Below, piece by piece: positions 7,556 through 10,674 of a stretch of DNA of 32,000 nt. Below the pieces are notes generated by a model. That model ran no database searches. It had not been told where the DNA came from and saw only the letters and a program-made list of their open reading frames with translations. The stretch is from contig OW818675.1 of assembly GCA_942493095.1 (NCBI GenBank), positions 240,001 through 272,000 of the forward strand. The letters run 5' to 3'. Numbering within the stretch: position 1 is the first letter of the stretch; each line of letters opens with the position of its first letter. This DNA is from Candidatus Electronema halotolerans (GTDB taxonomy: Bacteria > Desulfobacterota > Desulfobulbia > Desulfobulbales > Desulfobulbaceae). The position numbers and the translations under genes were made by a program.

Positions 7556-7599
7556 AGAACGGACTTGCTGAAGAAATTAACTTAAAAAAGAGTGAGTTG

Positions 7600-8511
7600 A
7601 TGACTTGGAATACGGACCAGCTCTATTGGTTGATGTACAAAGATGCTGATCAAGAAATTCTTACTTCATTTGAACGGCGCGTCTTAAAAATAGCCTATCC
7701 AATCGCTTATTGGTCATTGGACAGGGCGGTGAAACAGGAGAATCTGGAGGGAGTTATTACACAATTATCTGGATTACTTCCTGATATTTCATCACAGTAC
7801 AGCAATCAACAGTTCAGAGGTTTTGTTGAAAAGGCTGTAAGAGCACTACAGGCGTTTCAATGTCAAATGGCATCCGATATTTTCACTTCAGATTTGTTTG
7901 CTGACAAAGAACAACTAAAGATGGTTGACATAGGCGATTCTTCTGGACTGCATTCTTTATGTATCAAACATCTACTGAAAGATAAGAAGAAAATTGAAAC
8001 AGTCAGTATCAATTTAGATCAAAGGGCAATTGAAAAAATACAAAGCAAAGGTCTAAGAGCAATCTTGGCAAGAGCGGAAGATTTAGAACTTAATGAAAAT
8101 TTTGATCTTTTAACTTCATTTCAAACAGTTGAACATCTCCTTGATCCTATTGGTTTCCTAAGCAGAACAGCACGTAAGATAGATGCTGAACATTTTTTCA
8201 TCACTGTGCCCTTTTTCAAAAAAAGCCGTGTCGGTCTGCACCATATCAAAACCAATAAAACCGGACCGGTTTATGCGGAGCAGACCCATATATTTGAACT
8301 GAATCCTCATGACTGGTCGCTGCTTTTTCAACACAGCGGCTGGAAAATTGTCAAAGAAAGAATTTACTATCAATATCCACGTCGTATCCCTGTAGTAAAC
8401 GCTTTGCTCAAGTGGTTCTGGAGGATATTTGACTTTGAAGGATATTGGGGTGTTCTCCTACGGAAGGATTTAACTGTATCTAATTATTACCAAGATTGGA
8501 AGGATATTTGA
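7600..8511 (+). CDS. Class I SAM-dependent methyltransferase (uncharacterised)
   Basis: It has the motif I-like MVDIGDSSGLHS, an acidic loop, and the post-motif LLTSFQTVEHLLDP. It is very AT-rich. I moved the start to the ATG at 7600 (MTWNTDQ), because the 5-prime extension of the track ORF runs into the MTHFR remnant. Confidence 0.62.
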   Translation: MTWNTDQLYWLMYKDADQEILTSFERRVLKIAYPIAYWSLDRAVKQENLEGVITQLSGLLPDISSQYSNQQFRGFVEKAVRALQAFQCQMASDIFTSDLFADKEQLKMVDIGDSSGLHSLCIKHLLKDKKKIETVSINLDQRAIEKIQSKGLRAILARAEDLELNENFDLLTSFQTVEHLLDPIGFLSRTARKIDAEHFFITVPFFKKSRVGLHHIKTNKTGPVYAEQTHIFELNPHDWSLLFQHSGWKIVKERIYYQYPRRIPVVNALLKWFWRIFDFEGYWGVLLRKDLTVSNYYQDWKDI

Positions 8512-8512
8512 C

Positions 8513-8920
8513 ATGCTTCAGCTTGATCATTTCGCGGTTCAGGTTTCAGATTTAGAAAGGTCTATTGAATTTTATAAAAAAATAGGCCTGGAATATCGTT
8601 ATACTGCTTTTGACGAAGAAAATCATGAACGCTATGCTTTTTTCACGCTTCCTTCTGGGGGAAGTTTTGAACTTCTACAAGTTTTAGATGAGCAAAACAA
8701 TCCTATTCCTTTGCAAAAGAAAGAGTTGGTTCAACCTTTTTGTCCGCATATTGCTTTCACCACGAGTGATATGAACGAGACAATGGCCATGATTCAAGAA
8801 AAAGGATTTGAGATTGTCAAAGGGCCAATGAACATACCTGATGAAGTTTCTTGGGTTTTTATAAAAGATTATGACAATAATGTAGTTGAATTTGTTGAGT
8901 GGATAGGGGAGAAGCGGTGA
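8513..8920 (+). CDS. VOC / glyoxalase-I-family protein
   Basis: 135 aa. It has LDHFAVQVSDLERSIEFYKK..G at the N-terminus and a single beta-alpha-beta-beta-beta pair layout, ending ..NNVVEFVEW. It starts 2 nt after the upstream stop. Confidence 0.78.
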   Translation: MLQLDHFAVQVSDLERSIEFYKKIGLEYRYTAFDEENHERYAFFTLPSGGSFELLQVLDEQNNPIPLQKKELVQPFCPHIAFTTSDMNETMAMIQEKGFEIVKGPMNIPDEVSWVFIKDYDNNVVEFVEWIGEKR

Positions 8921-9831
8921 AGCTAATAAGATTGCAAGGAATCATACCTTGGGTGCATCATTATTATTGGTCGCATCCATTCTTTATTTTTCAGCAGATG
9001 ATCAACGAACGGCTAAAAAATATTGTTCAACTTGATTACGCTGGTGACAGCAGTTTTGTTCCTATTTTTGATCAATTTGATGCAGTCGAATCAGGTGCCG
9101 CAGATGTTGCCTTGGGTATTTCTTCCTATTACACGCACAGAATTCCTGAAGCAATGTGCGTCTTATATAGTCATCACTCTCCTGCTCAATTACGAACAAA
9201 TGGATTCTATGAGTATTTTCGTGAACTGCATCTGCGGAAGGGAAACGTTGTTTATCTCGCAAACACAGGTGGTGTCTGTAAAACTGCATTCCGACTTTTT
9301 TTCAATAAAAAAATAGCTGATTGTGATTCTGTCAAAGGACTCCGCGTCCGAACGCTACCGGTTTATGTTTCCTTAGTCAAAGCATTGGGCGGAATTCCTG
9401 TCAGCATTAAACCGACTGATCTTCTGGCCGCTTTGAAAAAGAACGAAATAGATGGTTATGGTTGGTCATACGGCGGCATTGCAAGTTATGGCTGGGAAAA
9501 TCTGACCAAATATGTGCTGGAGCATTCTTTTTATTCAGCTAACACCTGTTTGCTGATCAATAAAAGCAAGTGGGACTCTTTTCCTGCTGAAGTGCGGATA
9601 GAACTTGAACAGATTGGTTGTGATTTGGAACTGGAAGCAGAACGGGCAATGCGCGCATACAATAAAAATGAGGATGTTTTTCTCAAAGGATTGAATATAG
9701 ACTTTCTCTCCTTTTCTGATGAGGAGAAGCAACGTTTTATCAAAACAGCTTATGATGCAGGATGGTCAAGCCTGTCAGTTCAGGATGATGATGAGCTGAA
9801 TAAGCTGCAACTTTATTTAACAGGAGGATGA
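8917..9831 (+). CDS. DctP/TRAP-type solute-binding-protein homologue lacking a signal peptide
   Basis: DctP-like blocks seen by eye: ..AVESGAADVAL.., LKGLRVRTLP..VKALGGIPVSI...LLAALKKNEIDGYGW, and ..LLINKSKWDSFPAEVR. The N-terminus begins directly at the mature-domain equivalent, and no hydrophobic leader is present in any candidate start. My preferred start is the GTG at 8917 (GTGA overlap, preceded by GGGGAGAAG); the track ORF starts at 8899. Confidence 0.58.
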   Translation: MKLIRLQGIIPWVHHYYWSHPFFIFQQMINERLKNIVQLDYAGDSSFVPIFDQFDAVESGAADVALGISSYYTHRIPEAMCVLYSHHSPAQLRTNGFYEYFRELHLRKGNVVYLANTGGVCKTAFRLFFNKKIADCDSVKGLRVRTLPVYVSLVKALGGIPVSIKPTDLLAALKKNEIDGYGWSYGGIASYGWENLTKYVLEHSFYSANTCLLINKSKWDSFPAEVRIELEQIGCDLELEAERAMRAYNKNEDVFLKGLNIDFLSFSDEEKQRFIKTAYDAGWSSLSVQDDDELNKLQLYLTGG

Positions 9832-9833
9832 AA

Positions 9834-10565
9834 ATGAGTGACATCAAGGAATTCAAAGGCAACGAGCGTAATCAGTATCATGGCATGTCTGAATATTATG
9901 ATGAGGCAATGATGGCTGGTTACTATGACTATAAGTCAACGGCAGAATCCTTGGCTGATTTAATCAAGGACGGCGCAAAGGTTCTCGAAATAGGTGTTGG
10001 CACAGGTCTATTTTTGGACCATCTTTGTAAGTTGAGACCGAATTGCACCTATTATGGAGTTGATCATACAGATGCTATGATCAACAAGGCATTGGAAAAC
10101 GTAAATACTAATAAGTATCAAATACATCTGCTAAAACGTGATGTAATCAAGATGGAGTTCGAGAGAAAGTTCGATGTAATCTTTTCTCATGGTGGTGTGT
10201 GGGTCTTCTTGGAGGAAGTTCTCCTTAGTCATATTTTTGATGACGATAAAAATCGTCAAGGGCTAAAAAATATCAGACACCATTTGAAGAATGACGGGAA
10301 ATTCGTCATTAACATTCAGCCTAATCACTCAAACTCTGACACACCTATGGACAATGGCGTTGTGTTCAAGCAAAGAGTTCAAGAGGAAGAAAACTTTTCT
10401 TATAAGGATTATTGGTTTGAAAAGGATGGCAAAAAGCTGTCTGAGCAAAGATGCACGTATCGTCTATGGAGAAATGAGCAAATTGACAAAGTTCTGCGAG
10501 AATGCGGATTTAAAAAGACAGAAGTGACATCTGATGGCAAATTCCGTATTCTCACTCCATTATAA
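9834..10565 (+). CDS. Class I SAM-dependent methyltransferase (uncharacterised)
   Basis: Motif I VLEIGVGTGLF, then YGVDHTDAM, then FDVIFSHGG. AGGAGG at 9822-9827 is well spaced for the ATG at 9834; the alternative ATG at 9828 overlaps the upstream stop. Confidence 0.75.
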   Translation: MSDIKEFKGNERNQYHGMSEYYDEAMMAGYYDYKSTAESLADLIKDGAKVLEIGVGTGLFLDHLCKLRPNCTYYGVDHTDAMINKALENVNTNKYQIHLLKRDVIKMEFERKFDVIFSHGGVWVFLEEVLLSHIFDDDKNRQGLKNIRHHLKNDGKFVINIQPNHSNSDTPMDNGVVFKQRVQEEENFSYKDYWFEKDGKKLSEQRCTYRLWRNEQIDKVLRECGFKKTEVTSDGKFRILTPL

Positions 10566-10674
10566 TCGTCATTATTATTGAACCAGCAGTTTTTTTCAGT
10601 GAATCTAATCTCTGTTCAGGAGGAGCAGAGATTGTCGGCTGGTTGATCACTAACCATTACGGAGCATTATTCCT

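Follow-up and report, generated by a model that had tools for sequence, protein, structure and literature searches.

An AT-rich four-gene cassette inserted between yitJ and metK in the cable bacterium Candidatus Electronema halotolerans, with a possible role in the methylation of a small carboxylate

Introduction

How did four AT-rich genes come to lie directly upstream of metK in the cable bacterium Candidatus Electronema halotolerans, and what might their products do there? The genes encode a methyltransferase (MT1), a vicinal oxygen chelate (VOC) protein, a leaderless homologue of the DctP binding proteins and a second methyltransferase (MT2), and they form a cassette within a stretch of 32,000 nucleotides (nt) of contig OW818675.1 (assembly GCA_942493095.1, positions 240,001 to 272,000), here called the window, whose own numbering is used throughout. 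In this window the DctP-like protein and MetK are each 100% identical to proteins of Ca. E. halotolerans, a member of the Desulfobulbaceae. Foreign cassettes embedded in operons are common, and each of these four proteins belongs to a known superfamily; it is their combination that has no counterpart among curated families or described pathways. No other salt-tolerant Electronema species has been described, and in this one the cassette sits within an operon that regenerates S-adenosylmethionine (SAM); the locus is a testable candidate for the handling of osmotic stress or for methyl-group flow in this lineage.

An initial annotation, made from the nucleotide sequence and a list of its open reading frames (ORFs), had read the four genes as a horizontally acquired block outside any described pathway. 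The analysis below upholds that reading, redraws the extent and structure of the inserted DNA, and proposes with corresponding caution what the cassette may do.

Results

The cassette departs from its surroundings in base composition over its whole length. The G+C content is 38.8% in positions 7564-10658 versus 56.3% across the remaining window; in 500-nt steps it stays at 0.37-0.42 over 7501-10500 between flanks of 0.51-0.66 on either side, and the cassette maximum of 0.424 lies below the minimum of 0.436 recorded outside it (mean 0.563, standard deviation 0.050). G+C at third codon positions (GC3) is 0.31-0.41 in the four cassette genes and 0.70-0.79 in trpA, ubiA, yitJ, metK and ahcY, and both measures agree with the sharp composition break claimed in the initial annotation. 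The coordinates given there, 7556-10670, were right to within about 10 nt, and profile matches in Pfam and NCBIfam agree with its four family assignments. The cassette, its genes and the two genes that follow them are these:

7564..10658, + strand: module B, the AT-rich inserted cassette, delimited by composition and absent from the sister genomes L029 and L030
7600..8511, + strand: MT1, 303 amino acids (aa), Pfam Methyltransf_23
8513..8920, + strand: VOC protein, 135 aa, PF00903 (Glyoxalase)
8917..9831, + strand: leaderless DctP-like protein, 304 aa, PF03480, GTG start
9828 or 9834..10565, + strand: MT2, 245 aa (ATG 9828) or 243 aa (ATG 9834)
10675-11838, + strand: metK (Pfam), SAM synthesis, right border of the insertion
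~11944-13230, + strand: ahcY (Pfam), hydrolysis of S-adenosylhomocysteine (SAH), downstream of metK

The cassette is packed and oriented for co-translation, in the same direction as its neighbours. The tight junctions first described can be read directly: a 1-nt gap (TGAcATG) between MT1 and VOC, a GTGA overlap whereby the GTG start of the DctP-like gene overlaps the VOC stop, and, between the DctP-like gene and MT2, either an ATGA overlap (ATG 9828) or a 2-nt gap (ATG 9834). The latter MT2 start is the likelier one because AGGAGG stands at 9822-9827; at the opposite end, the longest MT1 ORF begins with a GTG at 7525 and homologues favour the ATG at 7600. Promoter and terminator scans remained at background level, with no terminator-like site on the + strand of the MT2-metK interval (10565-10675), and Rfam gave no SAM or SAH riboswitch in the whole window.

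The extent of the foreign DNA is set by two sister genomes, namely the NCBI metagenome-assembled genome (MAG) GCA_026645415.1 (L029; MetK 94% identical) and the closed genome of Candidatus Electrothrix sp. YB6 (L030; MetK 90%). In both of them only about 60 nt separate the yitJ stop from the metK start, within the gene order trpA-ubiA-yitJ-metK-ahcY or at minimum yitJ-metK-ahcY, and this comparison bears out the earlier claim of horizontal acquisition. Since DNA homology to the window ends at the 3' end of yitJ and returns only 16-18 nt ahead of the metK ATG (10657-10659), the intervening positions 3669-10658 (~7 kb) are extra DNA. This insertion is bipartite, with a left part that we call module A and the AT-rich cassette as its right half; the cassette had been recognised correctly, and the rest of the insertion, which holds a further methyltransferase, had been missed. 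The features to the left of the cassette are these:

1802..3685, + strand: resident yitJ, homocysteine S-methyltransferase/methylenetetrahydrofolate reductase (MTHFR), PF02574 and PF02219, syntenic with L029 and L030; left border
3669..7249, + strand: module A (Pfam/NCBIfam), absent from L029 and L030
3872-4966, + strand: EgtD-like methyltransferase of module A, PF10017
4968-5723, + strand: ATP-binding cassette (ABC) ATPase of betaine/proline/choline type, module A (Pfam/NCBIfam)
5720-7222, + strand: fusion of an OpuAC binding domain and a permease, module A (Pfam/NCBIfam)
7250..7563, + strand: decaying duplicate of the yitJ 3' end, a copy of 3333-3668 that contains the remnant ORF
7219-7506, + strand: remnant ORF, 95 aa, within the region of the yitJ 3'-end duplicate

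Module A is native-like in G+C, with an intermediate GC3 (0.52-0.66), and its EgtD-like methyltransferase scores 94 bits against the EgtD equivalog, whose cut-off is 291. The initial statement that no transporter membrane component is present holds for the cassette and fails for the left half of the insertion, which has a complete ABC transporter with its permease. In a related Electronema lineage, the ABC ATPase and OpuAC-permease genes are separated by an additional class I methyltransferase of 215 aa (L002, 4363-5010; L003, 2311-2958), seen as a 965-nt insertion or deletion relative to the window at ~5726.

At the junction between the two halves lies what the initial annotation called an MTHFR remnant, which is not itself a scar of the cassette insertion. 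Positions 7250-7563 match positions 3333-3668 at 84% nucleotide identity over 337 nt gapped (89-90% ungapped), the remnant shares 79% aa identity with YitJ residues 501-600, and its stop arises from a TGG->TAG change at 7504-7506. The remnant is hence a duplicated 3' end of the resident yitJ, now decaying, that brackets module A, and its interpretation as a disrupted second metF gene was rejected. Direct repeats of ~315 nt, both of them yitJ 3' ends, therefore flank module A, thereby suggesting that this module entered by single-crossover (Campbell-type) integration through yitJ homology. The AT-rich block begins where the right-hand repeat stops: yitJ homology extends to 7563, the fall in G+C starts at ~7551-7600, and the composition break, which had been placed at the end of the MTHFR remnant, coincides with the end of the repeat, 57 nt past the stop of the remnant ORF.

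No integrase or transposase was found near the cassette, no repeats flank 7564-10658, and the sole transfer RNA (tRNA) gene in the window lies at 22220-22296. The cassette resembles genomic islands in its sharp composition break, in its absence from sister genomes and in its near-identity between otherwise diverged lineages, and differs from them in that it has neither an integrase nor a transposase of its own, and no tRNA target or terminal repeats. Searches of plasmids turned up nothing related to the cassette, and a plasmid-borne origin was dropped on that account. We regard horizontal insertion of the cassette as nearly certain, the best explanation being that a four-gene operon fragment from a low-G+C donor was placed inside the yitJ-metK-ahcY methyl-cycle operon.

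The same arrangement is present in metagenome contigs from other samples (L001-L007), and their comparison with the window reveals how recently the cassette has travelled. In 250-nt bins, L002 is 99.6-100% identical to the window over 7501-10750 and mostly 97-100% identical in module A, as against 83-95% in yitJ, 85-92% in metK and 78% in the metK-ahcY spacer, and 78-95% across yitJ, metK and ahcY as a whole. Because the cassette is near-identical and its flanks are diverged, the ancestor of the cassette copies must be far more recent than that of the flanks, and the cassette must consequently have passed from one diverged Electronema population to another or have swept through them. Whatever its function, the locus offers a clean and dated case in which a conserved operon received insertions stepwise and diverged populations of cable bacteria then exchanged them recently.

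Among the recovered copies, six of seven keep all ORFs whole and their start/stop coupling intact. The few differences between copies are unevenly distributed: all six in MT1 are non-synonymous, as are three of the four in VOC, among them a Q10* nonsense change (window position 8540) in L001, a contig that matches window positions 7220-10733, while the DctP-like gene has no differences and MT2 a single synonymous one.

The DctP-like protein is a clear member of its family, scoring 76.5 bits on PF03480 (cut-off 23.4), and its AlphaFold2 (AF2) model (predicted local distance difference test, pLDDT, 89) superimposes on PDB 4mnc/4mni with a template modelling (TM) score of 0.85; the family profile matches 4mnc with an E value of 8.5e-78. 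These entries, the closest solved structure, are of Bpro_4736 from Polaromonas sp. JS666, which has the same fold and is ~36% identical as judged by eye from the HMMER alignment, or 26% identical in the Foldseek alignment. Where DGQENP is usual, both proteins have the sub-family motif DGYGW(S/P)xGG, and they also share the arginine motif G-x-[KR]-[IV]-R. Within the latter (GxRVR here), R145 is invariant and aligned with the same motif in 4mnc, and on the strength of the motif we take it to correspond to SiaP R147, the arginine that holds the carboxylate in characterised binding proteins of TRAP-type (tripartite ATP-independent periplasmic) transporters.

What the protein lacks is a leader. Its start coincides with that of the mature portion of its secreted relatives, and in-frame stops 7 codons upstream leave no room for a signal peptide, in agreement with the initial description of a leaderless DctP. 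The sub-family is rare (24 cluster representatives in 5.8 billion proteins), and most of its members have a signal peptide and come from Alphaproteobacteria; a scan of 185,579 species genomes with the DctP alignment gave nine loci, all of them secreted forms in Alphaproteobacteria MAGs, and no second genome with the cassette. The secreted relatives, 45-52% identical to the DctP-like protein, include true TRAP components, with DctM adjoining in L018 and L021, and others are orphans (L008-L010 and L016). Since they include true TRAP systems with DctM alongside, the leaderless form is the derived one. Leaderless members number only three, the window protein, P0002 and P0006, each with in-frame stops just upstream, and such an apparent loss of the leader in three TRAP-type binding proteins, each beside VOC or MT2 genes, is unusual.

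Eight fixed position differences separate the leaderless from the secreted clade, including G->H at position 74, and because only these eight clade-specific positions differ, ligand binding has probably been retained. Unlike TRAP binding proteins, the DctP-like protein lacks both a signal peptide and a DctQM partner (a search among the ORFs of the 32-kb window gave no DctQ or DctM gene), and it is coupled to VOC and MT2; for these reasons we predict it to be cytoplasmic and outside any transporter. The simplest reading is that a ligand-binding role has been kept inside the cell.

The remaining three proteins are enzymes by family, MT1 putatively so. MT1, a divergent protein resembling class I SAM methyltransferases, scores 27.8 bits on Methyltransf_23, barely over the Pfam cut-off of 27, and has at least 219 homologues at 42-56% identity, which share an atypical and family-invariant motif I (D-I-G-D-S-x-G-x-H). 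Its AF2 model (pLDDT 89) combines a Rossmann core with an N-terminal helical domain; a structure search of the PDB with this model returned only generic class I methyltransferases (TM ~0.45), and a sequence search of the PDB returned no match.

The VOC protein (52 bits on PF00903) is a single-domain metalloprotein resembling glyoxalase and methylmalonyl-CoA epimerase, and its best sequence matches in the PDB are methylmalonyl-CoA epimerases (E ~2e-6); it stays below the equivalog cut-offs for GloA (TIGR00068, 34.3 vs 120 bits) and methylmalonyl-CoA epimerase (TIGR03081, 29.9 vs 114.95 bits). H6, H79 and E126 align with H5, H74 and E122, metal ligands of Escherichia coli GloA, and the second ligand glutamate is presumably E53 or E60. 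The protein thus appears to keep its His/Glu metal site, which fits chemistry beside a carbonyl.

MT2 exceeds the cut-offs of five Pfam methyltransferase models (among them Methyltransf_31/25/12/11, 42-55 bits) and carries the glycine-rich motif I EIGVGTG of a Rossmann-type SAM-binding domain, also found in its homologue in L011. Its family is small (20 of 1.84 billion cluster representatives at E<=1e-30), and one relative, P0267 of Tateyamaria omphalii (WP_229801425.1, 721 aa, 42% identity), is fused to an AMP-binding, carboxylate-activating enzyme; a more distant domain of the family is fused to a 3-hydroxyisobutyrate-dehydrogenase-like domain (P0318, 585 aa). Such fusion partners are a hint that the substrates may be small acids. 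MT2 also matches 2-ketoarginine methyltransferase weakly in NCBIfam, and the rarity of these families, together with the lack of any equivalog-level NCBIfam match, sustains the earlier judgement that the cassette is not a described pathway. PADLOC returned nothing for the other three proteins and, for MT2, a generic methyltransferase-domain match to mad2 (63.7 bits); as this was its only match, a role in anti-phage defence was dropped.

A search for the cassette as a four-gene block turned up no such block elsewhere, and only pairs of its genes. The MT1-VOC pair occurs in L023 and L024 (31-36% G+C) at 56% and 45-48% identity, and in L023 it heads an operon (693-4924) that continues with a class I/II aminotransferase, a methyltransferase resembling glycine/sarcosine N-methyltransferase (GSMT) and daptide methyltransferases, and a methyltransferase resembling sarcosine/dimethylglycine N-methyltransferase (SDMT), which scores 251 bits on the SDMT model NF041675 (cut-off 550); this operon is a candidate pathway to an N-methylated amine or betaine. 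The VOC-DctP pair (57% identity) is found in L013 (35% G+C), where the C-terminus of a VOC homologue is followed by P0002 with an ATGA overlap. The MT2-DctP pair is found in L011 and L012 (30-32% G+C), where an MT2 homologue is followed by P0006 (51% identity each) and then by an EamA-family membrane protein (a weak Pfam match); ~1 kb upstream of the MT2 homologue there is an ISL3 transposase fragment. L011 may come from Bacteroidota, to judge by its genes for type IX secretion (Por_Secre_tail).

The recurrence of the MT1-VOC, VOC-DctP and MT2-DctP pairs in unrelated contigs of 30-36% G+C favours functional links between the genes and is compatible with a low-G+C donor. In all five arrangements examined outside Electronema a class I/II aminotransferase lies next to MT1 relatives or one gene away from them; the Electronema cassette has no aminotransferase. 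A scan of metagenome contigs with the MT2 alignment, whose patterns are too short, returned nothing beyond two weak, unrelated methyltransferases.

Discussion

The reading that we favour, to which we give a probability of roughly 0.4, is that the cassette products methylate a small carboxylate with SAM, the DctP-like protein serving MT2. According to this proposal, the DctP-derived protein would capture an organic acid in the cytoplasm by means of its kept fold and arginine motif, and would act as the substrate-binding or specificity partner of the co-conserved MT2. MT1 and VOC, the second co-conserved pair, might contribute a further methylation and an epimerase- or isomerase-type step beside a carbonyl, and the position immediately 5' of metK and ahcY would allow co-expression with SAM regeneration. 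Together with module A, the 7-kb insertion could then constitute an island for a methylated small solute. If active, the cassette would provide a SAM-dependent route, so far uncharacterised, to a small methylated acid, in which a transport-type binding protein has been re-used inside the cell.

Two kinds of known methylation pathway offer partial parallels. Glycine betaine synthesis through GSMT and SDMT relies on two methyltransferases that, in some halophiles, are encoded beside metK and ahcY. The cassette likewise sets two class I methyltransferases beside the genes for SAM synthetase and SAH hydrolase, in a host that tolerates salt and with a betaine-type ABC transporter nearby, and the L023 relative of its MT1-VOC pair precedes the SDMT-like gene (251 bits). 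However, MT1 and MT2 are no orthologues of these enzymes: MT2 reaches 26.4 bits on the GSMT model NF051855, against a cut-off of 350, and MT1 matches neither this model nor that of SDMT (NF041675). We also know of no GSMT/SDMT operon with a VOC or binding-protein partner.

The other parallel is with the trios that make beta-methyl amino acids or alpha-keto acids, in which an aminotransferase acts with a SAM-dependent C-methyltransferase and a small epimerase, as do MarG, MarI and MarH on the way to beta-methyltryptophan. The cassette similarly combines a methyltransferase with a small metal-dependent protein of epimerase type, the L023 relative supplies an aminotransferase, carboxylates are the ligands of the characterised members of the binding-protein family, and the weak match of MT2 to 2-ketoarginine methyltransferase points the same way. 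The differences are that the epimerase-type protein of the cassette has a VOC fold and not a cupin fold, that the Electronema cassette has no aminotransferase, and that its proteins are unrelated in sequence to the trio at any curated threshold.

A betaine-like compatible solute is a plausible but unproven product in a brackish species, and a methylated compatible solute becomes attractive because of the position beside metK and ahcY, the EgtD-like methyltransferase, the betaine-type transporter and the SDMT-like gene next to the L023 pair. E. halotolerans lives at a salinity of 18-23 (PMC12093952). According to the species description, none of the cable-bacterium MAGs encodes osmolyte biosynthesis, and a single subunit of a betaine-type transporter was seen (PMC10030654), as against the complete pair of betaine-type ATPase and binding-domain/permease fusion at this locus. 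A bolder version of the proposal, in which the DctP-like protein is the founding case of a cytoplasmic TRAP binding protein that serves as the substrate subunit of a methyltransferase, and the insertion as a whole is a methylated-solute pathway that aided the move of a freshwater cable-bacterium genus into brackish water, would contradict that published absence if true (PMC10030654); we consider it decidedly improbable.

Several observations weigh against small-carboxylate methylation by the cassette as a unit. Electronema alone had the four-gene order in all genome and metagenome sets searched, so that the cassette genes may not all belong to a single pathway, and no cassette protein scores as high as an NCBIfam equivalog cut-off. 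The putative partnership of the DctP-like protein with MT2 is drawn from their adjacency in only two lineages. The distribution of variants among cassette copies suggests, from small numbers, weaker constraint on MT1 and VOC than on the DctP-like protein and MT2. YB6, a cable bacterium from an estuary, lives at a salinity of ~30 (PMC12093952), and since it does without the insertion at this locus, the insertion is no general requirement for life in salt water. Lastly, more distant MT1 relatives, at 44-50% identity, occur outside solute pathways, in a recurrent module inside legionaminic-acid-type glycan clusters (L025-L028, L033 and L034), in the order CTP_transf_3, epimerase, methyltransferase, GFO_IDH_MocA, Aminotran_1_2, MT1-like, methyltransferase, epimerase, 2-Hacid_dh, HAD; the same clusters hold CBS+NTP_transferase, Epimerase_2, PglD_N and a Polysacc_synt flippase. 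The module is present in diverse anaerobes and was not recognised as a characterised one.

The last of these observations raises the main alternative, in which the cassette is a fragment of a module that acts on nonulosonic acids or other sugars and methylates a substituent of amino or glyceroyl type on a sugar of the cell surface. We think this unlikely, since neither the cassette nor the 32-kb window contains a sugar-nucleotide, glycosyltransferase or flippase gene, the nearest MT1 relative (56%, in L023) lies outside glycan clusters amid VOC, aminotransferase and N-methyltransferase-like genes, and relatives of the DctP-like protein and of MT2 were seen in no glycan cluster. Methylation could instead neutralise or mark a toxic organic acid for export, in the manner of trans-aconitate or tellurite/halide methyltransferases and of VOC resistance proteins. 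The gene pairs are indeed small, mobile and patchy in distribution, VOC weakly matches fosfomycin-, bleomycin- and mitomycin-resistance proteins, and the MT2-DctP pair of L011, with its transposase fragment upstream, is followed by the putative EamA-family membrane protein; yet the Electronema cassette has no exporter, its VOC metal site is of catalytic type and does not show a pure binding-protein pattern, and no curated resistance model reaches its cut-off, which makes detoxification an improbable account as well.

It might also be supposed that the cassette is passenger DNA, a recent and largely neutral fragment expressed only because it lies inside an operon. Such an origin would accord with the nine non-synonymous changes (Q10* in L001 included) to one synonymous change in MT1 and VOC, with the strongly un-ameliorated composition, with a complete gene order that occurs nowhere else and with the absence of the aminotransferase that lies beside or near MT1 relatives in every other context examined. 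The intact ORFs and coupling in six of the seven copies speak against it, as do the retention of conserved family residues, the near absence of change in the DctP-like gene (none) and MT2 (one synonymous), and a near-identity across lineages whose flanks differ by 5-17%, which denotes recent spread, possibly under selection; neutrality thus also seems unlikely. An ordinary periplasmic TRAP binding protein that imports the substrate of the methyltransferases would agree with the clear DctP membership of the protein in both sequence and fold, and with the DctM genes that adjoin its secreted relatives in L018 and L021. That reading is effectively excluded by the absent leader, for which the stops 7 codons upstream and the overlap of the GTG start with the VOC stop leave no room and which has been lost in two other relatives too, and by the absence of DctQM from the window.

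Other genes in the window

Away from the insertion, milder low-G+C stretches (0.46-0.48) occur at 14001-15000, 27501-28000 and 30001-31500. An ORF at 14686-15234 (- strand) matches DUF6719, and Pfam gave no match for two further - strand ORFs, 30065-30865 and 30873-31454. At 17706-21259 (- strand), a CHASE2-domain adenylate/guanylate cyclase (800 aa) stands beside a protein of 381 aa with a FecR domain, and a PAP2 phosphatase comes next; the cyclase and the FecR-domain protein make up a signalling pair that is unrelated to the cassette.

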